A DNA stretch of 64,000 nucleotides, taken from NCBI GenBank assembly GCA_964572255.1, contig CAZNEE010000006.1:11775-75774 (forward strand), read 5' to 3'. The translations under genes and the position numbers were made by a program. The notes beneath the pieces were generated by a model. That model saw nothing but the letters and a program-made list of their open reading frames with translations, was not told the DNA's origin and made no database searches. The first letter of the stretch is position 1. Each line of letters opens with the position of its first letter. Origin of the DNA: an uncultured Planctomycetia bacterium (lineage in GTDB: Bacteria; Omnitrophota; Gorgyraeia; Tantalellales; Tantalellaceae). Of this stretch, positions 1 to 24,210 are shown piece after piece.

Positions 1-330
1 CTCATAACGATCCATAACCATATAATAATACGTTTTGCCATCTACTTCGTAAAAACCCGCTGTTCTGATCTTGGCCACTCCGTCAATATTTTGCGCTTTT
101 TCAGAGATCAGATATTCGTGAATAAACCGCGCCTTTTCTTTTGCTTCATATCTCGCTACCTCTTCCGGATTATTCCAATCTACAATACTTGCTGCGCCTT
201 TACTGGGGCTTAATACTTTCATTACGACAGGTCTGGTTACAACGAGCTCTCCTTCAGTTTCAGGTATTACTGCCTCATCTGCCATAAGGATGAAGCCAAA
301 ACCGCCGGCATCGATCAGGCCGCCGTCTGC
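1..330 (-). other. Second kinase-like (possibly pseudokinase) N-lobe in paralog A, truncated by the window edge.
   Basis: Translation shows LIDAGGFGFILMADEAV (Gly-rich loop-like), RPVVMKVLSP (the conserved Lys, as in VAIK) and NIDGVAKIRTAGFYEVDGKTYYYMVMDRYE, a typical beta4-beta5/hinge pattern. Confidence 0.45.
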
Positions 331-3300
331 CGCCCATTTTGCTCCTTTTACACCTGATGTTTTCGGAGCTATATAATATCTTAATCCCTCCCCGGGCTTT
401 TCAATAATATCCGGAACAGGCACTTTTTCTTTTCTATCGTCAGGCCCGCGTATATGTTTTTCATCGCCGATATCGCCCCTCTCTACTGAAATTTTAGACG
501 CAAATCTATCGGTTGCTTCTATTCCGTTTACTATTGCTCTTGCTTCTTCTACTGAAAGATTGCTTATAGCATCATTTGAAAGAGCTATCATCTCTTCGGC
601 AGAAAGTTCTCCAGGCGGAGCGCGGGCGTCTAAAAATCTTCCAAGGGCCTTGCCTAATGGGGTTTTTCTGGGCTGGCCGTCAAATGTATCTATATCAAAA
701 AAGTCTCCACGGCCAAAAACTTCAGTAGTAATACCAATTATTTCATAATGACTCAGTTTCGCTCTTTCCAATGCCTCGTGTAAAATATACTCATCGAGTA
801 AAATATTCTTCTTATCTTCGAGAGCATCGAGACGCTTCTTCTCGATTTTGAGAAGAAGCTCCTTCTTGGCGGATAATTCAGCATATAATCGTGCTTCCTC
901 CTCAGTAAAACCTGCTTCCCCCTCCTCACTAAGATATTCTATTATGTTCAGGGCAAGGCCGCTTTCGTAGCCTAAGAGATAGCTTTCTCTTGCTAAAACT
1001 TCTGCTTCAAACAAGATGAAGCTGCCTTCCGGATCATTTAAAGCATCTTCAACAATTCCAACTATCTCTTCAACTTCAGAAGCATCATACCCGTGTCCCC
1101 GAAGCAGTTCCTCAAGAACGCTTATCTTTTCATCTAACAATCTCTTGCGCCTTTCCTTAACTGCATCTGTTTGGTTCTTGTTTTTACTATCTTCCCAGGC
1201 TCCCTCACTATTTTCTTCAATTCTGTCTTTTACTTCGGGGTGTAATTCCCCTCTTGCATCTACAAACTCGACTCCCTTTGCGATAGTGCCGCCAATATCA
1301 GTCGGGCCTTCAGCTTCCCCGGGAAACAAATCATCAAGCGCTTTCCCAACATCTGCGCCTCTGGGTATTGCTGCCTCATCTTCGGCTTCTTCGGGAAGCA
1401 ACTCATCAAGAACTTTTACAACATCTGCAGAAGGCACTAAGTCCTCCACGAGCAGATAGTCTAAAACATCCTGGATCTGGCCTGGGGTTGGCACAGATTG
1501 AGGCTCATCCCATTCCAAGCTAACAAAAGGCGATTCCTCTTCTGTCATAAAGGCAATAGGCTCGCCTGGTTCGACATCAGCTTCTATATTAGCAAAAGGA
1601 GATTCTTCATCCCTCAATGTAAAGACAGGTTTTTGAGTTAAAATCTGTTTCATGCGTGAAAATTTCGCCTGCACAATATCGAGATCCCGATAACTCATTA
1701 GACCCATGCGCCGCAGAACTTCCTCTGCTGTCCCAAAACCGTTCCCGTTCTCATTAAGAAGCAGGCCCGCGATAAGAATATCGAATCCATTATTACTTTT
1801 CAGTAACTCATCTATCAGTTTTGCCCTTTCCTGGAACCATCTTGGCAGCTCTCTGCTTTTTGGCGTTTTCATATAAGGAAGTCTGCCGTAAAATAATTCG
1901 TACATGATCGTCCCTGCTGCGTACAGATCTGTTCTGAAATCATATTGTTTTGTTCTCATGGTCTCTAAAGGCATGTGTGCAACGGTTCCGGCTATACCTC
2001 CTTCAACGTCCATGTAAACCCGCCCTTCAGGCGCATACAATGAAATCCCGAAATCACTGACCTTTAAGGTTATTTGTCCGGTTACCGGATCACGTTTAAC
2101 AAATATATTATCCGGCTTAAGATCGGCGTGAATTATCCCGTTTTCGTGTAGAGTGACTACAATATTGAGGATCTGTCTTTCGAGGTCCATAAGTTGGTCA
2201 AATGTCAATCCTGCTCTTTGTCTGTATATCAGGTCCTGCAGGGTCCCTCCGTCCATGAATTCCTGTACCATGAAATGAAATGTCTTTTCCCCTTCCTGGT
2301 AGGTTCCTGCATTAAAGGCGTTCACCACAGCGGGATCACCATCCATCTTTCTCATCATCAAATATTCCTGAAAGAACCTTATCTGTTCACTTGCGTTAAG
2401 TTCAGGGTTCAGTATCTTCACTACCACTTCCCTGCCGACATTCTCGCCTTCAGCTTCAACAGCCTTAAAAATAGCACCCATTCCCCCTGAATTAATAAAT
2501 TCCTTTATCTCGTACCTCTTGCCTGCAACAGTAATTTCCGAGGGAGCCGTTAAAGGGATCCTCCCGTCGATGTTTCCTTCCAGTTGTTTGTTGCTGTAAT
2601 CAAATTCAACATTACTGTCAGGGAAAAAGCGTTTCCACTGCCGGTTTTGAAGTTGTTTTTCGGGAGAAATAAGTTTATCGAAAATCCTGTAACTCAATAA
2701 GCGGTCCATCCTTCTTTCAAGTCTCCTTGCTGTCCAATCGCGTTCTTCCGCCTGTTCCGCTTCCAAAGCCTTTCTTTCGCCCAACTTATCGAACTGAGCA
2801 AGGTCTACCGCTTCCAACGCAACTTCACCTGACCTGTTAAACCTTTCGAATAAATTTTCCATCCTCTGGTTAAGCTCATCGGAAAGACCATAATATGCGC
2901 CTATCTCATGGACTATTACTTTGACCTGTTCCTGGAGGGATAAATCTGCACTGACATGAACGCCTCTATGGCTGGCATGCCCCCTAAAGCCTACGATTCC
3001 TTCGGCTGAAAATATATTTATCTCGCCACTTACTATCGCATCTGCTATTCCCTCATATCCCATTGCCCTAAAAAATTTGACTATATCGGACTCTGCATTA
3101 AAAGCTAAAAGAGTCCTAACTGCAGTGGCTAACTGCGTATCGATAATCGCTTCATGATCCTCGTATGTGAAGTTGTCGGTACTTGTGATCTTGACATCGG
3201 CTAAAGCATCACTTACGCCTCTTTCAAGAGAATATGTAACTGTGCCGTCTTCCATTGAAAACTTGATACCGGTAGTTGAGCCTTCAAGAGTTACAAAAGC

Positions 3301-5049
3301 GTCTTCGCCTTCAACCAGTTTCTTGGCGATCTCGACCATTATCTCCGCCTCGTTCACGGCCGCTTCACCGTCAGCAGCTAAACCGAGCCTGTTCCACATA
3401 CTTGCAACCTGCATGGTTGAGCGTGATACCGCTTCGGTCAGCAAAGTTCCAAGACCGCTCCTTTCCCCTGCCAGTATCTTAAAGTAAGGAGATTCGTACC
3501 CTTCTTCGCTCCTGAAAGTAGGAAGTATTGAAATGTGCGAGATGCCTTTTTTCTCCAGAAGCTCGCAGATATTTTCTGTATGGAAACCCCCGGTAATAAG
3601 AATAGCTATCTGCATACCGCCTCTGGGCTCTTTTGCTCCGACGCTTGCGAACCTGATATTATCCAGAAAGACATCATCGCGCTTGAAAGAATAATCGAAA
3701 AACTTCTCTATGCGTCCGCGGTAATAATCGAGTTCCCGTATGTTCCTGTCCGGCCTTGCAGTTATCTTATGGTAGGGAGCTTCTTTTTCGATGAAGGACG
3801 TGAAATTGCTGACATCGAAATCGGATCTATTCTTCTGATAATAAATATAATCGTCTTTAGAAAGCTTTAAATTGAATATATTTTTAGTGATCACCAGATC
3901 TTTTGAAAGCCTATCGAGCTCCTTCTGTTTCTCGTTCTGGAAGATGATCTCCTTGATATCGGCTTCCAATGCGTCAAGCTCGCTTATAACTTTTGTCTTA
4001 TCGACAGCTCCGTAGAGCGAAACATAAATGATATATTTTCTGAGTTCCGGGTAGTCTTCCAGGCTGATATTCACGATCTTTGCTTTCTTGACGAGTTCTT
4101 CATAATATTCACGCTGCGGGATCATTTTAGCTTCGAACTCTAAAGTTTTAGCGACAAGATCTTTTAGTTCTCTCTGTGAAAGCTTGTTTTTCAAAAGATC
4201 AACAAGTTCATCCCTTTCAATATTCGCTTTTTTGAAATTTATCTTGGTTTCCTCTTCGAGGGACTGCTTCAGCAGGTATATGTTCGTATATGATTTAACA
4301 TCGATGGCTTTTTCCTTTGCCTTGCTGATCATGTATGTGAGGTAATCCTTAAACTCTATCCTCTCAGCTTTATATTGGGTGTATACTTCGTCGATATCTC
4401 TTAGTTCGTCGCTGAATATACGTCTTTTCAAATTGTTTATGATATGAGTAAGCTCGTTTAAATACTTATCCACCTTTTCCTTATAGGTGAGAGATTCACG
4501 ATAGATTTTCAGGTTATCAAGATACAGCTTTTCATTTTCGACGCCCCAGAGCGACACATCATCAGAATTATTAAGGGCAAAATATTCGGCCGCGTTAACC
4601 AGTCCCTGCCCCACAAAGAAATCCCCGACCTTATCACGAAGAGTTTTATTTTCAATTTCGGTAAAAGGGGACAGGTCATAACTGCCTACACCTCCTTCAA
4701 GATTGATCATGCTAACGCCGTATTCTTTGTTTAAATGCTGGATAATATTTGAAATTTGTTTTTGAGCATCGTAATTGCAATGGGCATCCTGTATATGGAT
4801 CAACAGTTTATTCGGATCGCCCTTAAAAGAATGTCTGACGAGACCCATGTCATGAGGAAGATTGAATGTCTCCGGATCGATGGGAGAAAATCCTTCCCTG
4901 GAAGAGGCGGCCAGATCATAAGATATTCCCGGAACATCTACCGCGCCCCAGGCATTGCCGGAGACCATGCTTAAGGTAAAAAATACCGTTAAAAGGCAGC
5001 TGACTGTCTTTTTCGCCAGACCATGTCTCTCCCAAGTTAGATGTATCAT
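1..5049 (-). CDS. Giant secreted protein, paralog A. Signal peptide, then the conserved ~600 aa N-module shared with paralogs B and C, then a Ser/Thr kinase, acidic repeats and a second kinase-like domain. The 3' end lies beyond the window (more than 1683 codons).
   Basis: The ATG at 5049..5047 is preceded by AAGAGGTGGAAG. The manual translation starts MIHLTWERHGLAKKTVSCLLTVFFTLSMVSGNAWGA, then ...LLIHIQDAHCNYDAQKQISNIIQHLNKEYGVSMINLEGGVGSYDL... and ...ILITGGFHTENICELLEKKGI...EEGYESPYFKILAG...ASMWN. These match the N-termini of ORFs 5305..19329 and 19693..23454. No minus-strand stop codon is present in this frame down to base 1, consistent with no complete minus-strand ORF being listed in the track for this region. 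Confidence 0.8.
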   Translation of the reverse strand, partial: MIHLTWERHGLAKKTVSCLLTVFFTLSMVSGNAWGAVDVPGISYDLAASSREGFSPIDPETFNLPHDMGLVRHSFKGDPNKLLIHIQDAHCNYDAQKQISNIIQHLNKEYGVSMINLEGGVGSYDLSPFTEIENKTLRDKVGDFFVGQGLVNAAEYFALNNSDDVSLWGVENEKLYLDNLKIYRESLTYKEKVDKYLNELTHIINNLKRRIFSDELRDIDEVYTQYKAERIEFKDYLTYMISKAKEKAIDVKSYTNIYLLKQSLEEETKINFKKANIERDELVDLLKNKLSQRELKDLVAKTLEFEAKMIPQREYYEELVKKAKIVNISLEDYPELRKYIIYVSLYGAVDKTKVISELDALEADIKEIIFQNEKQKELDRLSKDLVITKNIFNLKLSKDDYIYYQKNRSDFDVSNFTSFIEKEAPYHKITARPDRNIRELDYYRGRIEKFFDYSFKRDDVFLDNIRFASVGAKEPRGGMQIAILITGGFHTENICELLEKKGISHISILPTFRSEEGYESPYFKILAGERSGLGTLLTEAVSRSTMQVASMWNRLGLAADGEAAVNEAEIMVEIAKKLVEGEDAFVTLEGSTTGIKFSMEDGTVTYSLERGVSDALADVKITSTDNFTYEDHEAIIDTQLATAVRTLLAFNAESDIVKFFRAMGYEGIADAIVSGEINIFSAEGIVGFRGHASHRGVHVSADLSLQEQVKVIVHEIGAYYGLSDELNQRMENLFERFNRSGEVALEAVDLAQFDKLGERKALEAEQAEERDWTARRLERRMDRLLSYRIFDKLISPEKQLQNRQWKRFFPDSNVEFDYSNKQLEGNIDGRIPLTAPSEITVAGKRYEIKEFINSGGMGAIFKAVEAEGENVGREVVVKILNPELNASEQIRFFQEYLMMRKMDGDPAVVNAFNAGTYQEGEKTFHFMVQEFMDGGTLQDLIYRQRAGLTFDQLMDLERQILNIVVTLHENGIIHADLKPDNIFVKRDPVTGQITLKVSDFGISLYAPEGRVYMDVEGGIAGTVAHMPLETMRTKQYDFRTDLYAAGTIMYELFYGRLPYMKTPKSRELPRWFQERAKLIDELLKSNNGFDILIAGLLLNENGNGFGTAEEVLRRMGLMSYRDLDIVQAKFSRMKQILTQKPVFTLRDEESPFANIEADVEPGEPIAFMTEEESPFVSLEWDEPQSVPTPGQIQDVLDYLLVEDLVPSADVVKVLDELLPEEAEDEAAIPRGADVGKALDDLFPGEAEGPTDIGGTIAKGVEFVDARGELHPEVKDRIEENSEGAWEDSKNKNQTDAVKERRKRLLDEKISVLEELLRGHGYDASEVEEIVGIVEDALNDPEGSFILFEAEVLARESYLLGYESGLALNIIEYLSEEGEAGFTEEEARLYAELSAKKELLLKIEKKRLDALEDKKNILLDEYILHEALERAKLSHYEIIGITTEVFGRGDFFDIDTFDGQPRKTPLGKALGRFLDARAPPGELSAEEMIALSNDAISNLSVEEARAIVNGIEATDRFASKISVERGDIGDEKHIRGPDDRKEKVPVPDIIEKPGEGLRYYIAPKTSGVKGAKWAADGGLIDAGGFGFILMADEAVIPETEGELVVTRPVVMKVLSPSKGAASIVDWNNPEEVARYEAKEKARFIHEYLISEKAQNIDGVAKIRTAGFYEVDGKTYYYMVMDRYE
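1300..1620 (-). repeat. Acidic tandem peptide repeats in paralog A: ~22 aa units ADVVKVLDELLPEEAEDE and ADVGKALDDLFPGEAEGP, plus EESPF-x-E-D motifs.
   Basis: Manual translation gives DEESPFANIEADVEPGE, EEESPFVSLEWDEPQ, ADVVKVLDELLPEEAEDEAAIPRG and ADVGKALDDLFPGEAEGP. Confidence 0.55.
1830..2515 (-). other. Hanks-type (eukaryotic-like) Ser/Thr protein kinase domain within paralog A. It is a non-RD kinase with catalytic loop HADLKPDN.
   Basis: Manual translation shows YEIKEFINSGGMGAIFKA (Gly loop), VVVKIL (the conserved Lys, as in VAIK), MVQEFMDGGTLQDLI (hinge), IIHADLKPDNIF (catalytic loop) and VSDFGIS (DFG). It also shows GTVAHMPLE (activation segment) and DLYAAGTIMYELFYGRLPY. Confidence 0.8.
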
Positions 5050-5304: not shown

Positions 5305-8300
5305 TTAGAGGGATATAAGTACTGCTTCTCGGGCATCTTTCCAGTCCTCAATATCGGTAAAATCTATGGCCCGTATCCGCAAAGCTATACTTCCGGTTAG
5401 GATGCTATTTATCAGTTCGCGGGGATTCCCGGCATATTTGGCAAAATCTATAGACCCGGGCTCGACCAGGGTCTCAAGAAAATCAACTAAGTGCTTAAGC
5501 TCTTCACTTCCTTGTCTCGTTCCTTCACCGAACACACCTTTTTCAAACCTTTCATAATTAAGCAAGCCTTTTGAAAGGATAATATGCATTACATTGTCTA
5601 TCATTCCATTTTCCGGGATGTTTTCGACTGTAACTACGGTAATAAGATCTTTTATTTTTTCGTAATCTTCCAAAAGATCTGCTCTTTCGAATATATTTCT
5701 TAGATCCACGCCTTCCGGAAGCTCAAACAATATTCTCGGATCCTTGTCTTCACTCTTATAAAACGCCGGGAGGATCCTTTCCTTTATTAATCTTGCGAGA
5801 CTCGGCTCTAAATTCTTAAAATCATAGCCGTAAGGCAGTGTTTCCTGGCCGAAATCTTTTCGGAACTTTCTTGCGCTCTTTCTGTTTATATCTTCCTGGT
5901 ATGCCACATATATGTCTGATCCCGGCAGAATAATTATATCCATTTTATTCTGGCGTAGATCTGTTAGGGCATTTCTTCCGGTCCCAATTCGCTCATCAAC
6001 TATTTCTTTTTTCTCTTCAGCAGGCTCCTCAAGAGCTATAACAATTGTTTCCTCTGCTTCGGGAACAGCCGCCAATTCTTTACGTCTATCAAACTCCAAA
6101 GCTACAAGCCCCCCTTGGACATCATCACTGTCAGACAACCTCAAAAGCCTGTCAAAAAGCGGTTCAAGCTCGACATGGAGTGCTTTTACGTCCTCATGTG
6201 AAACGCTCATACCCTCTCTTTCGCGTTCTTCCAAAAGTTCATAGATTTTACTCTTGATCTCATCTACTGTATCTGCCGCCATAGTTATGTCCCGGACAGC
6301 TTTTTCCCTGTCTATTCTTCCTAAATGTCTTTCGGAAAATGCCTCCCTGAAGATCCTTTCCACCTCATCGACCCTTCTTTCGACTTTTCTTAAATGGTCT
6401 TTCGGCTCAAGTCCTGCAAATACTTCGGTTCCGTCTTCATAAACTTTTTTCCCTATAACAGTCCCCCTGGAATACATTATCGCGTTAGCGATTAATTGCC
6501 TGAGTTTCACTAAAAGATTATGCGCCAGTGGGGGACTACGCAGAATATTCATGCCGTAAAGAAGCACACCATGCCCCTGCACGGCTGTCTCAAAATCAAG
6601 CGTATCATTATCTTTTTGGGAAGGATCCTTCAACAGGTCCTCTATGCCGATCAGCCTCATATCACTCTTCTCTACACGCCTCCCTTTGAACCATTCTTCG
6701 GGATTTTTGATCGGAATGCCAAGAAAATGCCTCTTACTTTGCGGCACCGAACCTTTTAAAACTACGGCCAGATCCATATCAGACGGCTCAACAGCTTCTG
6801 CCCAACAATAACTGCCGTATGTAATAACCGCCAAAATGTCGTCTTTTTCTATTTCCAGCCCGGCTTCTTTTGCCTGGGCTACGGCAAAATCCTTGATCCT
6901 CTCGACGATATCTTCAGTGAATGAACCAAATGTTCTCTCCTCAAAAGCCTTTTTGTCGTCAGCGCTGTAAGAACGAAAGTACCAGTTGAACTCTTCCATC
7001 ATCTTTAAGATCTCATCCCTGTCCGTATTGATATCATAAACCTTCTCATCCTCCGGTGAAGCCACTCTGGTAGGTCTGAATTCATAAAGTTCGTAGGAAA
7101 GGTCTATCTGGATCTGCCTGAGTAATTCTTCGTCTGAAGCAACAGGCTCTTCCTTAACTTCTTCGCGGGTTACGACAGTTGTTTCCTCAACTTCTTCGCG
7201 GGTTACAATAGTTGTTTCATCTTCTTTGGCTTCCGCCAACCTCATCCGCTTGGCGATTTCGTCCCTGATAACCCCTCTTAAGATCTTATCAAACTGAGGT
7301 GTCTCGGCTATAGCAGAAAGAACTGAAGCTCCAAGCGCACTACCCACGATCCCTTCAAAAGCTTTCTGCATAAACAGCGTTGTTCTTATATTCGGCATGA
7401 GCTTTTCAATGATTTCAACCGGGTTAAGGCCCCGATCGAGCATTATCTGCATATCCTGCTCGGCAAGTAATGCCTCTTCTTTGCGTTTTGCTTCTTCTGC
7501 AGGCATTTCATCGTATAATTCCTTATATATGCCCGCTTCATGCATAAGCTCATGAGAAAACCCGATCAGATCCATCTCGATCGGAGCATCGGCGTCTATA
7601 TTCATGTACATATATCCAAAATATCCATCATCTTTACAATTACCATAAAGAGCGGGAGATTGTCTGAGAGCATCTACTATCAAATATTTTTTCTTAGAAA
7701 GAGTTTCTTTTAATTTCTCTTGATATTTTGGGCCTCTTATTTCTATACATCTGTCAATAAATCCTTGAAGTGTCATATTTTGTGCTTGGATGCGTTCAAA
7801 AACTTTTTTATGTATATAAATTTGAACTTTAACGCCATTTATCTCAACAGGCAAACTGTAAAAATTAGGTATAATTCTTTCTGTCTCAATTTGCCACGCC
7901 AGGGCCTCTATTCTTCCTTCGTCGCCGAATATTTCATCTTCACTGACATGTAATTCCCCGTCCGTGAATAGCCAGAAATTAGCAAGGGGCGGCATTTCAG
8001 CAGGTGGCTTCTCTTGTATTCTAGTATCAACAAAACTAACTTCCAGCACCTTTGCCTGTCCTCTCGCATCTTTAGTCACTACATTAATACTGTTTACGCT
8101 TTCTGTGCCTGAAGCAGTATATTTTGGCACAAGAACGCCGATCTGTCTTAATTCTCCTAAAGTTGTTTTTTCCCCGGTTTCAACAGTAATAACTTGCGCA
8201 TCATCAGGGAATACCTGTAGCCTCAATGTGCTTATTAATGCTATTAGCTTATGAGCTTCGAACTTATCTTTTTGTTTCTCGAGGGTATACACTATAATTT

Positions 8301-11300
8301 CTTCTTCTGTATCAAACTTTTCTTTACCTATCACCATTTCGTCAATTCTAGTTTCAATGTCATCTTTGTCTTTATATTGACCATTCATGGCCTCTTCCAT
8401 TACTCGCCTGATCTTTAATATGCTCTTTCTTCCATCAAGCATATTTCTTACAAACTTTGCAACCTCCGGCGAAAGTGCTTCACTCACATGACTATAGTTA
8501 ATAATTAAATTAAACAGTTCATCCAAGGTAACATTTTCGCCGATCTGTATATTTAAACTTTCAATAGAGTCTTCTTGCTTGAGAACATCCAGAGCAAATA
8601 ACTTTTCACCCGGTTTTGGAATACCTTTAAAAAGTTCTTCCGTCGGATAAATTCCTTCAAGCTCTAAAAGCCTGTTGAATTCTGCCAGCTTTCCGGGATC
8701 GCCGCTTATAGCTTCTCTTATGATCTCTACTTGATAGTACATGCCTGTCAGTTTTAGGTAATCAATTGACCATTGGGCTTCTTCTTCCCTTGCACGTCTT
8801 CCTAAGTCTTCCGGTATCATTCCTCCGGCTAGCGTCTCTGGCTTTACAACTGTAACTGGTCTTTTTACAATACCTTTACTAGTAAGAGTCTCAGATGTAC
8901 CTTGCGCGGTCCCTCTTACTATTCCTTCAGGTGTCATGTGTGTTGCGTTATACCGCCTTCTTCGAAGCTGCCCTCGGCCTATCATAATTACCATCACCGC
9001 AACAAACCATGGTACTAATATTGGAGTGCCGGCACTGCTTCCCCAGTTGGCTACCGCGCAACCGCTGGAAACTTTCCGCTCCTCCGGTGCCGTCCACACT
9101 TCTGTTTCCTTCCAATGCCTAATAAAATCTATCTGCTCGGCGGTTATATAATAACTCGCATCCTGCCAGATAAGCGCGCCGCTGCTTCCGTTTTCATATA
9201 CTATACCGATCACATTGGCAAAAGTCGGATCAGAAAAATATCCCGGGTCAAGCTCGCCATGAAAATAGCTGCTGCCGGTCGGGATCGCATCATCGGGGTA
9301 TTGCGGAGGCGACATGCCCGGATATACATGTAATTGTTCCGAATCTACTCCCGTATAACGATCGACATTATCCGCGCCATTTAGCCCGACGGTCACTGTC
9401 GAGCCGGGATCATTCGCGTGAACCATCTCTATTCCCTCTGAAACAAAAGTATCAACCTCTCCATCAGTTATGCTTGTTTTCTTTGCCACGTCGGAAGGCT
9501 CATTCATGAAATCCCATATTTCTATTTTCTCGGCATATCTACTGACAAATTGCCCCATCAGATCAAATAATGCGGACCTTTTAACAGGATCCGTTATAAG
9601 ATCCTGGTGCTCGCCTTCATATTGAGACACTACGCCATCGGCTAACGTTTTATCAAATAATACCGGTAAAATATTTATCCCGAGAGCGTGAGCTGCTTCT
9701 AAAAGCGTATCCATATCGTCATAAACCTGTGAATTAATATCCAGCGGTGTTCCGTCCACATCAAAAATAATACCTGACCTTAAATCACAGAAAATAAACA
9801 CCCTTACAGTGCAGCCTTTCCATGGCTCGAGTTTTTGATATAATTGATTTTTCTTCGTAGCCAAACCTTCATATGTCTCGCCATTTGCTCCTTGTCCAAA
9901 ATCATAACCATATCTTACCCATGCCAGATTCACACCCCTTATAAATTCCTGCCCGGGAGTCCATTCCTTGGTAGTCTCGTCGGGATATATACTTACGATC
10001 CCCCCGTCTGTTGTATATACTATTGTCTCTTCAAGGCTCCATGAAGCATCATAATCATACACAGTACGAGTACCATCCGCTTCATGTAACGTATTAATAT
10101 AGCTGTCTTCCCCGACTACGTTATATGTAGCTACATCACCGTTATCGTACGTCCTGACAACAAAATCCGGAGATATGATCTCTTCAATAAAATCAACGGC
10201 AGACACTTCGCTTATTGGAACAAAAAGTAGAAAAATAAAAGTTGAAACTGCAGCAGTAACCTTCGATCCCAAATTGATAACGGAATGGCTTAATATGGCC
10301 AGGGCCATAAATGCCCATGGATTAGACGTAACGGACATCAATATGACAAAATTGATCAAAGACACAACAAAAGGCGCAGCTTTTATTCCCTTATGATGAG
10401 AAACAAATAATACTGCTGCGGGAATCTGCAGAAAAAGCGCAATAAGTATCACTAAAGAAGGTCCCATAAAACTGCCCATAACCAGAGAGCCAATCAAGGA
10501 TGCAAACAACAGCGGCAGGCCCCTGTAAAGCGGTTCTTCCACTAAAGGCGCAATTACCAACCTCCTCACCCACTGCGGCATCCAGGGCATTCTCTTATCG
10601 AGCCATTTTTCAAGCCATTCCGTCGTGGCAAAACCGAAAGGTTCTTCAGGCTCAGTAGGAGGCTTCTTCTCAGATGACATAAGAAACAGCTTCTTTACCC
10701 AATCTTCCTCTTCCTCACGCAAGAAATCATATTCATCTGCATCTCCTCCTTCGGGAAGCTCTCCTTCAAGCATGGAGATGTACGGAATGTTTTTATCGCC
10801 CCTCTTTGCGGTAAGGTGTTCTGCCAGGGCGCTAAAGGCTCTTCTTCCAAGGCGCCTCATAAGCATGTCCCTTATCGCAGCCTTAATCGCTTCTCCTCTC
10901 GCATCTTCTGAAAGCAAGAAGATATCCTTATCAAAAAGGAGCCTGATTTCTTTATTTACGGCAGCAGTCGATAAGGGAAGTATCATCTTCAAAAGCTCGC
11001 CAAAGGTTTTGTAAAATTCATCACGATCTTCTGTTGTAAGCAGGGTATTTTTTATACGTAAAAACCTGTCTGTGTTATCAAAGTCAGCGAATTTGTCCGT
11101 AAAATCTTTCTCCGCTGCTTCATATTCTTTTCTTTTTGCTTCTATTTTCACTCTGCCGTCAAAATAGAATTCTTTAAGCGCGTTCCTCAAAGAAGCAAGG
11201 CTCACCTTATCCGAAACAGATAGGTCTTGTATCAGATAGATTATTTTTGATATCTCCTCCTGCGTCATGAAAGGATCAGAAAGAAGAAGATGTATGTAGT

Positions 11301-14300
11301 TGGTCGCCATGACCTCGGGATTAGCGTCATCCATTACATTCAGAAAGATATTCCACTGAAAAATATCGTTATACTTCAACCCGGCGATATAGCCATCGAG
11401 TTTCTGCTGGGACTGCTTGAGCATATTTATCTTTTCTTCGCTTGATATTCCCTCCCAGTAGTTAGGCACGGTCCAGCTCTTAAGGGCGGTAACATTAGAT
11501 TTGTAGTATAGCGGCAGATGATTTTCGTTATTTATCAAGGCTTTCATGAGCTCCAGTTTGAAAAAGCTGTTTTCGTTAGTGTTTTTAGTTTCTTTTAGCT
11601 CGTTGTAATCATCCAGCATGGAAGCTACAAAAAGTTCTGAAAGCATCTCAGAAAGCGTGAGCGTCTCTATCTTTCCTTTAGCATAAATTATATCCCCGCC
11701 TATAGTCAGCCGTATTACCGGCTTTCCGTCCACCTCTCGTTTCTCTATTTTTGACGTTTCTACTGCGGGATCCACTGTTATCCTTAAGGAAATATCAAAT
11801 ATCTGGGAAGAAAGCTTCACATTTTCAGCCACATCTTGCGGAAATTTAGCTACAACGCCGCTTATCCTCTCAGAAAGCATTTGAGCCTCCTCATCGGTCA
11901 ATCTTCCTTCGTGGGAAAGCTCGATAAAGTCATCCACAATGATCGGTTTTTCGGCTACGCGTTTTTCCTTCTCCTCCATGCTCTCACGAATTTCCGCCAG
12001 AGAAGTCTCTTCCAGGAAAAATCCCTCTTCAGGCAGATTTATTACATATACTTCCTCGTAACTATATTTAGGACTGACACTTAACTCTGTTTCCTCTGTT
12101 AATCTCCTTTTCTCCAATATGCCTTTATTGACCAACTCATCTATAAGCTTATTTACAATGGGATCATTTGAACGTATGCCTCTGTTTGCCGGGATCACGG
12201 GAATAACGTTCGCTTTCTTCGCTAATCTTGAAGCTGCTTCAATAATACTAAAAAAGGCTTTTTCCCTTTCCACCGGTATGCCCTTCTGGTAAAGATTGAT
12301 GCCCGTTAAAGCCATGACCCTGTAGCCTTTTTCTGAAGTTGGATTGTCTATTCCCTTAACGGGAGTTTTTAATATTTGTACCTGGCTTGTACCTAAAAGC
12401 TTTCCATCGCCTGTCTTTAAGGCAATAACTGAAAAATGAGGGCCTTCTTTTATCTGGTAAGCCCTGTTCCTCCACGTACATACACCTGTCATCATGAATT
12501 CCATAAGATGCAAAAGATCATCAAAAAGGCCTACATAATAAGCGTTCTCTAGCTGTGACGAAGTTACTTCAAATCCATCCAGAACGCCCCCAACCCTTCC
12601 GGAAAGTGCTTTCGCTTTTTTCTCTGCCAGGCTGATGATCGAAGGTAAAAGTAATCCTGACCTCCTTTCTGCATCAGAATAAGGCGGATTTACTCTAAGA
12701 TCCGCCAACGCTTCTTCGAAAGCTTTATCCATTACAGGGACCACCTCTTCAAGATCCATTCCCGTCTCTTTAGCGACTTTCCTGCAGAATTTGCCCTTTC
12801 CCCTCTGGAACCAATCCCTTAAAGCATCCTCATCTTCCAGGCTTGAAGAACTTATCCGGGAAAACCATTTCATGATAATAAGGTTTCTTAAAGCGCCCGT
12901 ATCGTTTTCTTTGACCGCTTTGTAAAAGTCAGAATCCGGGGTAAAGATCCTCTTTATGTCCTCAATCGGCATAAACCTTACCTTAACAAACCTTTCCACC
13001 AATTTTTCTGTGTCTTCACCGCTTAAGGAACTTATCTGCCCGATCAATATCTCCCTTATCTCCTCCTTTGTCTTATCAAGATACGAAACTTCATCTAAAT
13101 AAACAGCATTTAATACCTGGGCCCATCTGCGCAAATATTCTTCCTGTGAAGATAAGTTGTCAGGCAAAGTCCTGAAGCTGTCCGTATCACCGGCTTGCTC
13201 TATAAAAACCGAGAGAAAATATTCAAGGACATTATCTTCATCCGCTTCGCTTAAAGGTATTTCTTCTGCGAAAAACGGTTCCAATTCATCCAGTAATATC
13301 TGTTTTTCCTGAACTGCTCCGGACTCTTCAGAATATCTGGTCTGAGAGGCCCTGCCGTAATCAAACTTGTATACGCCTCTTAAAGCGGGATCTATTTCAT
13401 CAGAATAATCCGGTTTCTCTTCGAGCGCTTTTCTGACCTTTTCGTACATTTCCTGATAGTCACTTACAGTTAAGTTAAGTATTGGTATATATCTTGCGAT
13501 CAGAATTACTTCATCTAACGGAGTAAGGCCATATTTTCTCTTAAATTCCTCGCTTAACCCTTTAAATGAGCCCCACGCAGTTTTAAAAGGAGCCATCTCT
13601 TCCTGTATGTCTTTTCTTAGCGACTCGATCTTTTCGTCATCGTCTTTATGTTCCCTAAAGTATGAAAACAATGTAGCGCTGAAGACCTCTAATCCTTTAT
13701 CATAATAAAGGGCAATGTCGTTTCTAAAAGCTTCCCACTCTTCCTTGTCCCATTCTTCTATGATTCCCTCTTCTCTGTATTCTTCCAATATGCGCAAAAC
13801 TCCCTCTATCTCTACGGGAGCTCCTCTCCCTTTCTTTTGGGCTATCTCCAGGATAATATCGTATAAATAGTTAAAATTACCCGCTGATCTTAAAACCTCA
13901 ATGAGATCTGAATGCCCTCCGACAAAGCCGGATCTTTCTCCCAGCATCCTGATCACTCTCGTTAAAGCATTAGAATAAGGGAGGGCTGAGATCAGCTCTC
14001 TAACATCCTTTATTCTTAGCTTCAAGAGTTTAAGGCTGTCCAAGCACAAATTCATATTAATGCTGGTTCTTGCCAAAAGGATCATTATATCCTTGCACTC
14101 CTGCAGGAATTCATCTGTATTGTCAAATTTCATGCTGGATAGATAGAGCCTTACACTTTCCGAAAATTGGGTAAGATATCCTTTTTTCTGCAGATACTCC
14201 CGTCCCTCTTTTACTTCGGCTAAAAGCGGCTTAAGAAATCCCTGATAATAAATTATTATCGCGGGCAAAAGCTCTGCACGCGGAAGGACTCTTTCTCTCG

Positions 14301-17300
14301 AAACGTCTACTGTCATATTAATAATAGCTTCGTAGATAATATTCAAATAATCATAGTCTATTTCGTCAGGAATTTCTGATAAAAAATTCCGGATCTCGTC
14401 AATATTGTCCCCGGTGGATACCTCTGCTAAAGCTTTTAAAGCATGATAAGGAGCTTCCAGATCTCTTTGCAATAACCACTTCTCGGAAGCATATTTTGAA
14501 GCTAACGATGCCTTTATTGCCCTCTCAGTTGTTTTGCTTCCGATCACACTGAAAAGATCCTGAACCTTTTTCATATTATCTATGGTCACCATTCTTACTC
14601 TAACCATAGCTTCTAAAGCGGAATAAGCTGCTTCTGCCCCCACCCCTGCTTCCTCAAATATAGTAGAAAAAAGAAGAGACCAGATCTCTTCTATATTGTC
14701 CTTATTTACCAGGCCATTTTCTGCCATGATATCTAAAACGGAATACAATGCTAACCGCGTTTTAGGGTCTTTGGGAGTTTTTTTACCGGTTGTGACAGAG
14801 AAATCCCTGACCCAGTCGATGTTATCCTCGGTTACCACGCCACCTCTTGCTAACTTTTCCAACATAGAATAAGCGTTTACTGTGGCGTAACCTGCTCTCC
14901 GGGCAACTGTAACAAGAATATCTCTTGTCTTTTTTGGGCTGATCCCCGCTTCGGCCAAAGCTACGTAAGCAAGATAGGCAGCCCCGGCATGGATGCCTGT
15001 CCCCTTAGTTATGTCTATGAGGGCATCAAAATCAAGGCTGATGCCTTTGCCTTTAGCCCTTTCAAGCGCTAATACCAGATCTTTATAAGCAATTCTTATA
15101 GTATCTTCTTTTTTAGCTTGTTCAATAATATCTGGGTATTCTGTTTCCTCAAGCTCTCCTAGAAAACGTGCTTTTTCTATTTCCAGCTCATCCCTGCCTG
15201 TTGGCCTATCTGCCCTCTTACTGATGGCAGTAATAAAAGCTTTGATCTTTTTTATGTTTTCCTCAGTCACCCCTATCGTATTGTTTAATGCTATTAAGGC
15301 GGAACAGGCAGCGTCCGTATTTCTCTTTGCTGCTTTAACAATATCACTGATAAGTCTGGGGTCTGCCAGAAGAGGATTGCCTGTCTCCCCCAATCGTGCT
15401 AAAGCGGGATAAGCGTCACTCCAAAAACCTTTTGCATATGTTTTGCCAATACTAGGACTCGTAATTAAGTGTCTGACCTCAAGGTAAATAGAGTAAAAAA
15501 ATCCTCCAATTCTTTTAAATATATTTCCATAAAATTTTAAAGTGTCCCCCAGAATTGTTTTAATAATAACAGCAACAATCATGATAGCTATCATAGGATC
15601 GAGTACGAGTAGGCCGCCATGTGGTTGTTGGACTCCAAAAGGTACCATGGGCTGTACCATGGGCAGTTCAGGTTCAACCGGCTCTTCTAATGCTCCAAAC
15701 TCCCCAATTGGTTGTATCTCTGGAAAATTAAACGCTGCAATAAGCTCCGGCGCAATATTAATATTAGCGGGAACGATATTCTCATATCCAATGCCCAATC
15801 TTCTCCTTGCACCTAACATAAAATCTTCTCTTATTCTTATGCCCGCCTTTTGTCTTTCTACCAGTCCGGATATATTACCACTGCGATGGCTGGCTTCCAG
15901 CGGCCTATCCTCTCTTCTGCCTATTTTTGCAACATCTTGAACTATTTCCTCTTCATCTGTTGATCTCATGGTAAGAAGAGCTCTGAGGCGATCAATGTTA
16001 TCCTTTGTTATCTTTCCCGCTTTTGCCAGGTCTCTTAATGCAGTGAAGGCAGCTCCGGTATAAGCATCCGTATTATCAGCTATAACGATAAAAACATTCT
16101 TGATGTGAGTGATGTTGTCCTGTGTTATCGCCCCTGCTTCAGCCAAGGCTGTTAACGCCTCATAGGCAATTCCCTGAAATGCAGGAGTTATTCTCCCCGG
16201 TATAACAGCATTGACAGTATTAATTAGGGCTTTTACCTGCGGGATGTTAGCTTCTGTTATTACTCCCTTGTCAGCCAAAGCAAACAAGAAAGAAGAGATC
16301 CATATACGTTCTCTTAGCCTGTCCGTGACATTAATAATACCGTCAACCAAAGGCTCTAATCGATCTTCCTTACTTATAATGGGTTCTTTTCTGGGTTCCC
16401 CTATCGTGTATACGAAATCTCGTCTCTGAGACTCTAAAGCATCGGCAAAGCTTTTATATTTTTCTTTTTCTTGTTCTAAAGTTGCCTTATATACTTCATT
16501 TTTTTGTAATTCCTCAATAAGTGTGAATATTCTTTCAAGGATAAATGGATAGTTAGCATCTGCTACAACCATTTCATCAATTAAGCCTTCCATCCTGGAA
16601 GATCCAGAAAAGGCATACTTCAAGGTTATTCCGGATTGCGGAACTTCAGTAAAACCTAAGTCCCTTAAGATGCTTGCTGCTAAAAAGGAGCTTCTTCCGG
16701 GGATAACACGAGGAGGCCCCCGCACTAGGCGAATAAGTCCTCTAAAAGAGTCTCTTACCACATAATAAAGTGCGGAACCAAGAATGATAAAAGGCGCGAA
16801 AACATACTCAACAGAGTAAGCAAGAACTTCTTCCAGGACTCTTCCTCCCGGTCTTGCTCCCAAAATCGAATAAGTGCCCGTAATGCCTGTGTATCTCCTC
16901 AAGAAAATTCTATGCACAAGTTCATGTAAAAATACTACAGGTCCCATATTACGCCCGAACTTATCGATCGCATCTGCAAGCGTATCCTCAGGCGTCAGGA
17001 TCCTTGTTTCTTCATCGCCAGATTGCTCGCGCATCCTCCTATGTACTATAAGTGTCCGTAACATAGATGGTATTGCCCAGATGTATAAGAGATTTAAGAA
17101 AAAAGGTGATGCTAACGGAACTAGCAGGTTAGCACCGGCAACTATCATCCCTAATAATGCCAACAAGGTTATTCCACGCGCCAAAGGTTCAAATACTGCT
17201 TCAACTTCCATTCCTCGATATGGTTTAAATACCAAAAACACAAAGAAAAGTATAACTGCTTGAGCTATTGTTAAAGCTACTCCTGTAAAAAAAGTTAACG

Positions 17301-19329: not shown

Positions 19330-19486
19330 GAAATTAACCTTTATAAATTACTTTAATAAATGCGCAAAAAAAATTTACATTTTCGATGCTAATATATATT
19401 TACATAGCCCGCAAAAATATAGATATACTTCTACCTTCAAGTTAAAGGAAAAGTATAAGTTTAATGTAACTTTACTCTCATTTACA

Positions 19487-19540
19487 AGTATACATTGCAT
19501 ACATGGGGGTGACCAAAAAAATAAGCTAGATTTTGTGTGC
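19487..19540 (-). promoter_or_regulatory. Putative promoter of paralog B. Box B (19515..19540) abuts a -35 TTGGTC (19516..19511), an 18 nt spacer and a -10 TATACT (19492..19487).
   Basis: The gene-sense sequence is GCACACAAAATCTAGCTTATTTT-TTTGGTC-N18-TATACT. Box A (TTTTTTTTGCGC) sits at ~19355-19375. Confidence 0.5.
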
Positions 19541-19549
19541 TTTAACAGT

Positions 19550-19588
19550 CCGCCCCGAACCAGGGGAGAATCCCCCGATCCGGGGCGG
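19550..19588. promoter_or_regulatory. GC-rich nested stem-loop immediately upstream (gene-sense) of box B of paralog B. It is not followed by a T-tract on either strand.
   Basis: The outer stem is CCGCCCCG...CGGGGCGG, enclosing an inner hairpin AGGGGAGAATCCCC. Its GC richness contrasts with the AT-rich spacer around it. Confidence 0.4.
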
Positions 19589-19692
19589 CATGAGTGTTAG
19601 GAAATACTCGAGAACAGATCTAATTATAGATCACCTTCCAAGTTCCCATAGCTTTCCTCTTTAGTATATCCGTTCCAGATCTGGATATAACA

Positions 19693-22600
19693 TTATAATG
19701 CACGCAGTACTGCCAAGCGTGCTTTTCTGAATTCTCTAAGTTCTTCGTAATCTATCTTCTTTATCTTAAACACTTCTATCCCGGACATGAATCTTTTAAG
19801 ATCCTGCCAGCCCAGTTGTTCAAACTTCTCCATGTCCCCACTTAATAGTCCAAAATAATCCAAAGCCATCCTTACCAGCGATGGGACATCCCCCACCCTG
19901 TCCAATTCAGCCAATATTACACCGAGCTCCATCAAAAGGTCGTGTTCAAGCCACTGGCCCGGCTCGAGTTTTTCATGTCTTATGACAGCCGCTACATCAG
20001 GATCTTTAACATAGTTAGCAGCTTCCTCCGGGGTCATGGTCTCATCGTCAATAATTACAAGTCTCGGATTTAAATTGTTCTCTTGAGCTTCTCTGAATGC
20101 CTCCCAGTTCTTGGCTTCGGCTGAAGCTTCTGCCCTGCTTTCAGTATCGCCTTCCCTGAAAAAGAACACTTTTACATTAACGCCTATTTCCCGCATCAAA
20201 ATACCCGAAGCTTTAGTGGCAATTCCTTTGTGTGTAGATATCTCCAGATCATACTGATCGGCGGGAAGTCCCACTACCAGCGCTGTCGGCGGAAGGTTTC
20301 TTGGTACGTGATCTTTAAAATCGCGTTCCTGAGCGATCTCCAGTTTCTGCTGGACAAAATTATAGAACTTGTTGCCCGGATCCGAAACATGTTCCGGTTC
20401 CAGATTTTCCAGCTCGGGACCCGTCATAACAAGATCGCCAAAAAACCTGTTAAGTTCTGTCAGCGCATCATAATCGTTATCTATCATCTCAAGATGCTTC
20501 ACCATTGCGTGTTCCAGTCTAAAATTTTCGCTCGCCTCCAGCTGTTCAGCCCTTAAAGCATTTACAAGTATGATATCCTTCTCGAGATACCCTTCACTTA
20601 AAGGCCTTATGGGATTGTTATTAAGAAATACAACGAGCGTATCTTCTTCAACGAAACTCTGCGCTGTTGCCACATAACCCAGATCTACTTCATAGATCTT
20701 GACCTCCTTTATTTGATATTCGGGGTTTTGCAGCCTCTCGACCAGATCCCTGGCCATCGCCTCGTCTATCCCAACTTTTTGAAGCCTTTCGATGACTTCT
20801 GCGCTGGAATACTCAGGAAACCCCTCATTTAAAGCTACCTCAAGTTTTTGTCCCATTCTTACGATCAGCTCATTTGCCCTGTCAATCACTGCCTCTATTC
20901 TTTCCTCTTCTACATCAACAGGCTTGGCCACCCCGGTATCCCTCAAGTCTTTCAGCTGATCTCGGGTTAACCTCGTCGCGATATCGATGCCCGGGATTTT
21001 GTCGGCCACTGCTTCCTTAGAAAGACGCTCGGCGGTTTCGAGCTGATCCTCAAAACTCTTAAATAGATCTCTTCTTCCCGCCAGGGCTTCGCGTTCTTCG
21101 GGCGTGCTCTCCGCCAAAGATTTTTCCCGGAGCGGAGTCTCGCGCAATTTTTCGGCCAGCTGCACATATTCGTTAGATTCACCCATGGCTATATGTTCCA
21201 CCAGCCTGCTCAAAGCATCATCATATGTGAAGTTCCCCACAGCCCCATGAATGATATGCCGCACTATTCTTTCCTCGTTTATTGTCCCGTCCTTATTCAA
21301 GACAGTAGCTTTATTTATCTGTATGCCCTTACCTCCGGGATGTTCACCGAATAATATCGGCATCTCCCCTTCAGTGATCAGGAAAATTCCCTTGGTCACG
21401 CCTTCTTCCACCCAAACCCCATCGCGTAAATTTTCCAACATCCCTATCACTCTATCGAATTCCCCCGCTTGATCGCCGAGCTGATTTTGCAGATCCTGCA
21501 ATCTTGTTATTGCTACATTTATATGTACATCCCCGACATTTTCTCTGCCGGCGGCAGCTTCGATGCTTGCGTCTACCTGTTCCTGGTGCACGAATTCTAT
21601 CACATCTTCAGCCGTCAAAGTTATTGACGGATCATCTTTCTTCGGCATCAGACCAAAAGCTTCATTTATATCCACAAAGTATTCGCCTTCTGCATCGGCG
21701 TATTTAAGCCCTATATTATATCCGCGCGCGACAAGTTCCCTCATCATTACAGCCACTTTAAAAGCATCAGTACCTGTTCTTCCCCACACTTCTTCCGCCA
21801 GCCCCTTAGATAAGTGGCTCGCTACCTGCAGCATCGAAGCCTGCGCGATAACTGAACCTAAAATGCTCTGGAGCGAGGTTGTCTCCCCGGCCAACAGTTG
21901 AAAATAAGGACTTTCATATCCTTTAGCGCTTTTGAACTTAGGCATTACCGATACATATGAAACGCCTTTTTCTTCAAATAAGCGGCACAAGTTCTCAGTA
22001 TGAAATCCGCCCGTCATAAGGATCGCCGCTTCCATACCGCCCGGAATGCGGCTGTATTTCATGTTTTTGAGGAACACTTCATCCCTCATAAAGGAGAAAT
22101 CAAAAAACTTGGCAAGATCGTCCCTGTAAATATCCAGCCTGAAAATACTCTCGCTGGGCCTTGCCATTATCCTGTGTTTGGGAGCTTCTTTCTGTATAAA
22201 AGAGATAAAATTCTGTGCATCGAACGAACCTTTATTGTCCAGGTAATACTGATAATCCGTGCGGTTGAGTCTTATATCAAAAATGTTATTTAAAAGGATG
22301 AGGTTTTTCGACAAAAGACTCAGCGTGCGCTGTTCCTGGCTTGTGAAAACATCCTCTTTTATCACGCTTTCCAGATCATCCATCTCTTCTATCAGTTTGA
22401 AGCGGTCAACGGCTTCAAACGTGGAAACATAATCTATATAATTCCCCAGAGTCGGGAATTTTTTAATATCGATCCTGCTGCTTTCAGCCAGATCAAAAAG
22501 ATAATTATAAAACGCTTTTGAGGATATCTTTCTTGTCTTGAAATCAAGTGTTTTAGCGACAATATCTCTTATGGTCGCCCTTGAAGACTTTGCCTTAAGT

Positions 22601-23454: not shown

Positions 23455-23615
23455 GATATTACCTCCATTTTACAGTCTTTATAAAAGACCTAAATTATTA
23501 GGCAAAAAAAATTCTTTCTTCATCCTGCCATAGGACAAAGAAACATACACTCTTATCCACTATTCCTAATAAATAAGAATAATAAAATTATAACTTTACA
23601 TACATTTACAATTTT

Positions 23616-23668
23616 AGTATACCCTATATACAGAGAATAGACCATAAAATCAAGCTAAATTTTGTATG
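23616..23668 (-). promoter_or_regulatory. Putative promoter of paralog C. Box B (23647..23668) abuts a -35 ATGGTC (23645..23640), an 18 nt spacer and a -10 TATACT (23621..23616).
   Basis: The gene-sense sequence is GGCATACAAAATTTAGCTTGATTTT-ATGGTC-N18-TATACT. Box A (TTTTTTTTGCCTAAT) sits at ~23497-23515. Confidence 0.5.
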
Positions 23669-23803
23669 CCTTAACTATTGGTGCCTTATTTCCCGTCCAA
23701 ATCTATTTATATATATAGGAATCATAAAGATTTATGCCATAATGTAAAAAATAATTGCAATTTTTATTTTTTTTGAAATCTTTTTTGTAACTAGTGATAT
23801 TTA

Positions 23804-23833
23804 TTGACATTTTCACTATAAGTCGTGTATACT
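23804..23833 (+). promoter_or_regulatory. Sigma70-like promoter for the cold-shock gene.
   Basis: TTGACA is at 23804-23809, followed by an 18 nt spacer and TATACT at 23828-23833. This implies a ~150 nt 5' leader. Confidence 0.55.
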
Positions 23834-23914
23834 TACATAGTAACAACTGCTGAGGTTAGCAGTAGTAATATTAACACGTGGTAAATGGTAAATAAGGAGT
23901 AGGGATATCAAATC

Positions 23915-23949: not shown

Positions 23950-23990
23950 GATACTACACCATTTTCCACAGATCAAAGGAGGCAAGTGGT

Positions 23991-24188: not shown

Positions 24189-24210
24189 CCTACGTAAAAA
24201 TAAAGCTACA

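Follow-up and report, generated by a model that had tools for sequence, protein, structure and literature searches.

Protein A, the 3,381-residue product of a gene from an uncultured Omnitrophota bacterium, is read here as an exported multidomain protein in which a TIKI-like N-terminal head precedes a cargo of kinases, the whole acting outside the cytoplasm of the cell that produces it, a reading to which we assign a probability of roughly 0.5. The 5′ part of the gene lies at the left end of the window, by which we mean the whole stretch of 64,000 nucleotides analysed (contig CAZNEE010000006.1, positions 11,775 to 75,774 of the forward strand). To the right of gene A, on the same minus strand, the window also holds two paralogs of protein A, B and C, and a further giant protein, D, which are listed in the last section. 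The features of gene A that bear directly on its interpretation are the following, in window positions.

1..5049, minus strand: gene A, 5′ part, with 1,683 codons of 3,381, delimited by the open frame and an identical public contig.
4945..5049, minus strand: predicted Sec-type signal peptide, residues 1-35, MIHLTWERHGLAKKTVSCLLTVFFTLSMVSGNAWG followed by AVD after the cleavage site, called by n/h/c rules and hydropathy.
3370..4872, minus strand: conserved N-terminal module (N-module), residues ~60-560, a predicted TIKI/ChaN/erythromycin-esterase-like alpha/beta core split by a helical insertion of ~290 residues.
1690..2514, minus strand: kinase domain 1, Hanks-type and non-RD, residues 846-1120, called from Pfam PF00069 (E=6.6e-33), an alignment with PknB and the motif positions.
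1..357, minus strand: start of kinase domain 2 (residues 1565-1683, the N-lobe), in which GGFGFILMA and VVMKVL with K1611 are found; the domain continues beyond the window.

The open frame spans window 5181 to 1 on the minus strand and continues past the left window end, the likely start of protein A being ATG 5049, with the N-terminus MIHLTWERHGLAKKTVSC. The locus is also carried by the ENA contig ERZ27256778 k141_1158504 (79.9 kb), where gene A is called from the same ATG with a product of 3,381 residues, and by the Logan contig SRR14699967, which comes from a different run and likewise holds a 3,381-residue gene A adjoining paralog B. Nine contigs that contain an exact paralog B were read, and both of the places shown (ENA and Logan) have gene A beside it. 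Over the 1,683 residues that the two have in common, the ENA copy of protein A matches the window at 100% identity. Retrieval of the full gene from an adjacent contig, which an earlier reading made from the letters of the window without database searches (the sequence-only reading) had proposed as a check, yielded 3,248 of the 3,381 residues from this identical contig; all analyses of protein A cover these 3,248 residues, the last 133 lying outside the coverage.

Very long open reading frames in metagenome assemblies call for general caution, and this was the only consideration found for taking gene A as an assembly or annotation artefact, or as a decaying pseudogene whose kinase motifs are relics. 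The frame is intact across all 3,248 codons, and the collection lists a product of 3,381 residues; the locus is present in the window, in the ENA contig and in a Logan contig from another run; every catalytic and structural motif is intact and the AlphaFold2 models are confident. The ENA and Logan copies have already effectively refuted this explanation, which we consider extremely improbable.

Two kinase domains in tandem

The seven motifs by which kinase 1 had been recognised in the sequence-only reading were all found on the minus strand at window 1891-2487, inside the interval 1-2515 given for them: GGMGAIF (2467-2487), VVVKIL (2410-2427), QEFMDGGTL (2239-2265), HADLKPDNIF (2101-2130), DFG (2047-2055), GTVAHMPLE (1963-1989) and DLYAAGTIMYELF (1891-1929). 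The Pfam Pkinase match to kinase 1 covers residues 846-1067, well over the gathering score, and the Pkinase score rises from 114.6 bits for the window part to 191.3 bits for the full protein, in two stretches and with a cut-off of 31.7; no other domain was found in the Pfam scan of the 3,248 residues. The closest solved structure to kinase 1 is PknB of Mycobacterium tuberculosis (E=8e-22), and in an alignment that extends from the G-loop (GGMGA) to subdomain IX, K878, the alpha-C Glu (FFQEY), D976, N981 and D999-F-G pair with PknB residues. The match to the Pkinase profile and the alignment of the catalytic set bear out the claim that kinase 1 is complete, and the possibility that careful alignment would expose missing catalytic residues did not materialise. 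In the catalytic loop, H974-A975-D976 stands where PknB has HRD, leaving no Arg before the catalytic Asp, so that kinase 1 belongs to the non-RD class with its catalytic Asp, Lys (K878) and Asn (N981) kept, as had been proposed.

What had been noticed as a second kinase-like N-lobe running off the window is the start of a second kinase that is complete on the ENA contig, with GGFGF, K1611, the Glu in FIHEY, H1743-R-D1745 (HRDLKPAN), N1750, D1767-F-G and GTPLYLPLE, and its catalytic residues line up with those of CaMK and Aurora kinases. The HRD loop makes it an RD kinase: the tandem arrangement expected from the window therefore stands, together with the HAD loop of kinase 1, whereas the non-RD class does not extend to kinase 2. 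Among the kinase-bearing relatives of protein A (described in the next section), the loops are as a rule non-RD (HGD, HAD, HND, HLD), and the relatives P0003 and P0005 also have kinases in tandem. Non-RD kinases work without phosphorylation of the activation loop, so that kinase 1 would be constitutively competent; kinase 2 may be regulated.

The nearest relatives of these kinases are bacterial, namely PknB and kinases of Myxococcota at 32-34% identity, 34% being the maximum to any kinase found. By their sequences, kinases 1 and 2 are new and divergent members of the bacterial Hanks family, predicted to be catalytically complete. The description as "eukaryotic-like" given to them at first needs correcting, the domains being ordinary bacterial Hanks-type ones with nothing that points to a eukaryotic origin, which was rejected because the nearest relatives are bacterial. 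The likeness to PknB lies in the match of both domains to PF00069 and, for kinase 1, in the retained Lys, Glu, Asp, Asn and DFG. The architecture, however, differs: in PknB-type proteins a cytoplasmic kinase is followed by one transmembrane (TM) segment and then by extracellular sensor domains, whereas in protein A the kinases lie behind a signal peptide with no TM segment, stand in tandem within a protein of 3,381 residues and include, in kinase 1, a non-RD member.

The TIKI-like head, the tail and the family that shares them

A homology search with protein A returned 386 proteins, and all of those with a source name come from Omnitrophota/Omnitrophica. These relatives align to the N-terminal 30-48% of the query only, at 38-52% identity, the top match of the first homology search, in which protein A itself was not among the results, being at 48% identity. 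With a profile built from 62 N-terminal regions, the N-module was found in 9,060 cluster representatives at E<=1e-3 and in 5,116 at E<=1e-30, among 1.84 billion. The match is N-terminal in the best 150 of the 9,060 representatives, whose lengths range from 650 to 6,700 residues. In species-representative genomes 402 matching loci were found, of which the best 79 are labelled Omnitrophota or belong to metagenome-assembled genomes judged to belong there; several genomes hold multiple copies of the module. What follows the N-module is variable, and the Pfam domains found C-terminally in the relatives include Pkinase, GT2, HATPase_c, PPDK/PEP-utilizer, metallophosphatase, M48, methyltransferase, patatin, TPR, HEAT with choline kinase, and an intein.

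Across 62 sequences the invariant residues of the N-module are, in protein A numbering, H85, Q87, D88, A89, H90, E118, G119, R457, D458 and G487-G-F-H490. An AlphaFold2 model computed from alignment A1 has a predicted local distance difference test score (pLDDT) >90 over most of the module, and this predicted structure matches the TIKI fold, an alpha/beta arrangement with a core of parallel beta-sheet. The active site of TIKI proteins, according to the structure of RRSP, comprises two His and two Glu (E3900, H3902, E3930, H4030) and the conserved Arg-4001 (PMC6254334). In the N-module D88-x-H90, E118, R457 and H490 reproduce the RRSP spacing, E118 likewise lying 28 residues on, with Asp replacing the first Glu. 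The N-module may thus be described as TIKI-like, with an apparently intact, putative hydrolase constellation of the D-x-H/E/R/H type.

The TIKI superfamily brings together Tiki, TraB/PrgY, ChaN, erythromycin esterases, the RRSP of MARTX toxins and the type III effector HopBA1. From these the N-module differs in having Asp as the first residue, in the helical insertion of ~290 residues in its core and in heading a much longer protein, its position being N-terminal in the best 150 representatives. No Pfam or NCBIfam profile matched the N-module at E<=0.1, and by profile it is not a member of the superfamily; its own profile gave no meaningful match among the sequences of the Protein Data Bank (PDB).

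The family also shares its other end. After the alignment consensus had been seen to end in a conserved motif, a hidden Markov model (HMM) was built from the C-terminal tails of family proteins. The tail comprises ~40 residues with the consensus LLLRIRKIDWEEIRDWKEAQEAVLRSL at the carboxyl end, irrespective of the cargo, and the model matches 144 of the 202 family proteins, in 142 cases exactly at the C-terminal end. Carriers include paralogs B and C and all six of six kinase-bearing relatives, while protein D is without it; many of the family proteins that have no tail are probably truncated. On the available sequences the family is bookended, with a predicted signal peptide and TIKI-like head in front, a variable cargo and, in most members, a conserved tail. 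A full-text literature search retrieved no paper joining Omnitrophota, "protein kinase" and "signal peptide", the tail not being among the terms searched, and a looser one on TIKI-family terms isolated no Omnitrophota paper.

Evidence for and against export

Signal peptide and topology were called by the classical n/h/c rules and a Kyte-Doolittle scan. Protein A begins with a predicted signal peptide of the Sec/signal peptidase I type, in which the n-region has R8, H9, K13 and K14, the h-region spans 14-15 residues (VSCLLTVFFTLSMV) and the c-region is SGNAWG, with predicted cleavage between A33-W-G35 and A36. The signal peptide recognised in the sequence-only reading is thus borne out, but lies at 4945-5049 and not within 1-2515, where it had been put together with the kinases. 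The segment at residues 11-29 is the single hydrophobic one in the protein, and past residue 29 the Kyte-Doolittle scan of the 3,248 residues found no segment above 1.4. The stretch between signal peptide and kinases had been held to be free of TM helices, one of which would have left the kinases in the cytoplasm; none was seen there in the hydropathy scan.

The same features recur throughout the family. All 113 complete N-termini carry more positive charge in the n-region than behind the h-region (mean net charge +3.8 vs -1.5), and an AXA-type site follows soon after the h-region, AWA being the commonest triplet at -3 to -1 (47 of 113) and [AS]W[AGS] occurring in 69 of 124. Small residues at -3 and -1 are expected to be under selection in a cleaved signal, not in a mere anchor, and the conserved AXA site is, as a sequence pattern, typical of cleavage by signal peptidase I and not of an anchor. 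Cysteine makes up 0.12% of protein A and 0.30% of proteins A-D pooled, whereas 20 housekeeping proteins encoded in the window have 1.09%. Conservation of the signal peptide and depletion of cysteine favour export, and we consider it probable that protein A crosses the cytoplasmic membrane. The precursor would be threaded through SecYEG and cleaved after AWG35, and because of this passage and cleavage the whole array, kinases included, would end outside the cytoplasm of the producer. The n-regions of the family are long and conserved by subgroup, with W...H...KK in A, B and many relatives and M.(D/N/T)ARSN... in another subgroup, and the predicted cleavage mostly falls at positions 32-44.

A different location would follow if protein A stayed on the cytoplasmic side, its N-terminal segment holding it on the inner side of the membrane or playing no part in translocation, and its kinases carrying out intracellular Ser/Thr signalling on a scaffold. 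By the positive-inside rule, a positive n-region followed by an h-region of ~15 residues predicts instead an N-in/C-out orientation with the rest of the protein outside; conservation of an AXA site in the family is difficult to account for unless signal peptidase, active on the outer face of the membrane, cuts there; and cysteine is depleted 4- to 9-fold with respect to neighbouring cytoplasmic proteins. In the relatives P0006, P0017, P0027 and P0047 the N-module and the kinase are not parted by a TM segment, and in P0003 and P0005 there are apparent two-helix hairpins; with no TM segment or an apparent hairpin in between, the kinase would therefore always be on the side of the N-module. The methyltransferase of P0068 stands behind ~5 TM segments, an arrangement that fits an N-module located outside.

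Several results nonetheless weigh against export or are neutral, and those on energy supply, cargo, GT2 and hairpin flanks speak for the cytoplasmic alternative at the same time. To our knowledge no ATP is present in the bacterial periplasm, yet kinases need it. The cargo of the relatives consists mostly of cofactor-dependent enzymes of cytoplasmic type (GT2, S-adenosylmethionine-dependent methyltransferase, PPDK, HATPase), and ABC1, also normally a cytoplasmic enzyme, is found among them. The GT2 of P0001 is on the side of the N-module, with no TM segment parting the two, and would be out of place with an outside N-module unless it were an effector; its position fits a cytoplasmic location as well as an effector role, and on sidedness it and the methyltransferase of P0068 point opposite ways. 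The flanks of the two-helix hairpins are slightly net positive on both sides. A positive-inside test on the first TM segment after the N-module gave no direction (K+R 1.87 before vs 1.53 after, n=75, Wilcoxon p=0.33), nor did a cluster-wise analysis of the first TM cluster after it. Within the window no secretion-system genes were found near gene A. As regards the head, a Foldseek search of the PDB with a 770-residue model gave nothing significant, Bcr135, EreC and ChaN being listed at non-significant E-values, although the helical insertion probably hides the core of the module from this comparison; as regards the tail, the last 133 residues of protein A, where it would be looked for, lie outside the data. 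Some of the extracellular locations predicted for giant Omnitrophota proteins "seem highly unlikely" to West-Roberts et al. themselves (2023, bioRxiv 10.1101/2023.11.21.568195). On balance we hold a cytoplasmic protein A to be rather unlikely.

Export and retention could also be combined, if protein A were kept in the periplasm or on the surface of the producer, with kinases that use external ATP or that act as binding or pseudo-enzyme modules of a surface scaffold, and no injection into another cell. Signal peptide and cysteine content argue for this arrangement just as they do for export towards a partner; no translocation apparatus or pore-forming region was recognised in protein A, and surface sorting might be signalled by the conserved C-terminal tail. 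For long Omnitrophota proteins, roles at the surface and in attachment have also been proposed. No adhesin-type repeats or anchoring domains were found in protein A, however, and both kinases keep all catalytic residues, which points to genuine phosphotransfer and so to an available source of ATP. We take retention by the producer to be quite unlikely.

If protein A is exported, and acts outside the producer as preferred here, the N-module and the tail, the latter seen in the paralogs and in six kinase-bearing relatives, may serve a handling common to the family, be it sorting, anchoring or proteolytic processing, and the variable middle would supply the activity. Because kinases need ATP, the most coherent destination would be the cytoplasm of a host or prey cell, or the interface with it, a destination that would fit the episymbiotic or predatory lifestyle proposed for Omnitrophota. 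That protein A acts on or in another cell can be put forward only tentatively, and the step from a signal peptide to a host- or prey-cell effector, which the sequence-only reading had taken, is inference only.

Secreted kinases that act in the host cell include YpkA/YopO, LegK, OspG/NleH and SteC, which are small, single-kinase proteins exported by type III or type IV systems without a Sec signal peptide. Protein A differs from these in that no type III or type IV secretion system or signal was seen at its locus. With MARTX and polymorphic toxins protein A shares a logic of conserved termini, here N-module and tail, around a variable array of enzymes, and likewise a protease-like domain as a constant part. 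MARTX toxins, on the other hand, use type I secretion without a Sec signal peptide, and glycine-rich repeats at both termini accompany a cysteine protease domain in them. The Pfam scan of the 3,248 residues of protein A detected none of these domains, and its signal peptide is of the Sec type. FhaB and the large autotransporters are Sec-dependent, giant type V substrates with extended signal peptides (the extended signal peptide region, ESPR), which the long conserved n-regions of the family may recall by analogy only; no beta-barrel or two-partner secretion (TPS) domain is present.

A broader proposal, which we regard as speculative and would not expect to hold in full, is that protein A is one cargo variant of a phylum-wide "bookend" delivery family of Omnitrophota. 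In such a family an extended-n-region Sec signal peptide, a catalytically intact TIKI-like hydrolase head and a tail of ~40 residues (LRIRKIDWEEIRDWKEAQEAVLRSL) would frame swappable enzymes of cytoplasmic type, and head and tail would act together, either in sorting or in freeing the cargo by proteolysis onto or into a host or prey cell, as a Sec-dependent analogue of the logic of MARTX and polymorphic toxins. No description of such a family was found in the literature checks made.

Within the phylum, the closest comparison is with the long proteins catalogued earlier. Most long Omnitrophota proteins have a signal peptide and/or TM segments, and those with a signal peptide only make up 9% of 916 catalogued (Nielsen and Lui, 2026, bioRxiv 10.64898/2026.06.07.730766). 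An extracellular, prey-directed role has been proposed for giant Omnitrophota proteins, and the Archaeovorins among them are portrayed as proteins of ~30,000 residues or more with many TM helices, in which glycosyltransferase, methyltransferase, glycoside hydrolase, peptidase, radical SAM and NUDIX domains form arrays (West-Roberts et al., 2023, bioRxiv 10.1101/2023.11.21.568195). Protein A has in common with them the phylum, an N-terminal signal peptide and cytoplasm-type enzymes of ambiguous location, the same ambiguity that the published surveys describe for giant Omnitrophota proteins (bioRxiv 10.64898/2026.06.07.730766; 10.1101/2023.11.21.568195). It differs in size, with 3,381 residues as against at least 10,000-30,000 in the Archaeovorins and catalogued long proteins, in having no TM helices after the signal peptide, and in being without the Archaeovorin signature domains (glycosyltransferase, glycoside hydrolase, radical SAM, NUDIX), kinases alone being detected. 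It is thus not an Archaeovorin in the strict sense, yet it belongs to the same phenomenon. In a term search of West-Roberts et al. (2023) and Nielsen and Lui (2026), neither Hanks kinases nor a conserved N-terminal module turned up, TIKI-like fold and tail not being among the terms.

Remaining regions of protein A, neighbouring genes and significance

Between the N-module and kinase 2, three further regions of protein A can be delimited in the window.

2800..3132, minus strand: middle region, residues ~640-750, with the motif VIVHEIGAYYG, present in a subset of the family with the consensus IVHEIIAG..GDH.
1171..1689, minus strand: acidic low-complexity linker, residues ~1121-1293, with the repeated peptide motifs EESPF.. 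and VLD.LLP.EAE, delimited by composition and sequence.
574..1170, minus strand: recurrent folded module, residues 1294-1492, delimited by BLAST and HMM mapping.

The middle region may be a degenerate zincin-like fold. The region between the kinases, at first described as an acidic repeat linker, is acidic indeed (103 D+E vs 51 K+R over residues 1121-1560), but Tandem Repeats Finder detected no DNA tandem repeat under the linker, and residues 1294-1492 form a conserved folded module instead. This module, which also occurs in 15 other family proteins, has the invariant pattern E-Y-x-L-H-E-x-L-E ... H ..II..T...F.R ... TPLG; a further copy of the HE..E module lies outside the window at residues 2986-3111 (L001:33221-33598; AEYMFHEVNEIGIGH), and a degenerate related motif, VHEIGAYYG, is found at residues 711-721, ahead of kinase 1. 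A small conserved helical module precedes kinase 2, and a weaker look-alike precedes kinase 1, so that the layout of protein A can tentatively be read as module, kinase, module, kinase. In the C-terminal half, ~1,500 residues are without a recognisable domain; a sequence search of the PDB with residues 1861-3248 gave no meaningful match, and residues 2046-2357 resemble residues 1153-1476 of the kinase-bearing relative P0017.

To the right of gene A, on the same minus strand, lie the genes of three other long proteins.

5305..19314, minus strand: paralog B, 4,669 residues, start ATG 19314, with an N-module at 47% identity, a signal peptide ending in DAWA before V, and the C-terminal tail.
19693..23454, minus strand: paralog C, 1,253 residues, with an N-module at 46% identity and the C-terminal tail, without a Pfam domain and, past the signal peptide, free of TM segments.
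25590-37820, minus strand: protein D, 4,076 residues, with an N-terminal hydrophobic segment and no Pfam match.

Paralog B has TM clusters at ~683-860, 1238, 2937-3042 and 3433, two canonical HEXXH motifs at 797 (HELVH, inside the first TM cluster) and 3921 (HELMH), and a weak match to a Pol-beta nucleotidyltransferase at 4162-4194, no other Pfam domain being found. Protein D was considered as a fourth paralog and rejected, having no BLAST match to the N-module and no tail; it is a giant protein different from the A-C family. Between C and D (window ~23500-25590; L001:3828-5324) lie a PhdYeFM antitoxin/ParE toxin pair, the gene of a small cold-shock protein on the opposite strand and a hydrophobic open reading frame of 135 residues.

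The rest of the window is occupied by housekeeping genes, namely a Lnt-like gene, fabD, fabH, plsX, ackA, pta, recG, recJ, a CDF transporter gene, secDF, tgt, the gene of a PAS protein, queA, a SpoIID-like gene, ruvBAC, yebC and the EF-G gene. All the open reading frames examined are on the minus strand except the small cold-shock gene, and all 2-kb bins of the 64 kb (window 1-64000) have a negative GC skew; uniform strand and skew suggest one long co-oriented replichore segment. The ackA frame as listed overlaps the end of pta by 85 nt (42925-44169 and 44085-45086, minus strand), with a Pfam match that begins at residue 35, and the true start of ackA is probably an internal codon. A truncated EF-G at the right window end was rejected, the gene simply extending past the window.

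Omnitrophota are widespread, uncultured and very small bacteria that are thought to live on or prey upon other microbes, and we know of no established mode by which they act on partner cells. Their long proteins puzzled earlier authors by carrying enzymes of cytoplasmic type behind export signals. Protein A offers a small and tractable example of this puzzle, with 3.4 thousand residues, a sequence free of TM helices past the signal peptide, and two kinase domains that are complete by the textbook, and the TIKI-like head and conserved tail provide two handles that unify thousands of such proteins. Should export prove true, Sec-exported Hanks kinases would constitute an unusual class of inter-cellular effectors, and the pair of head and tail would define a new cargo-handling route; should it prove false, signal-peptide-like N-termini in Omnitrophota would not mean export, and the published topology surveys would need re-reading.

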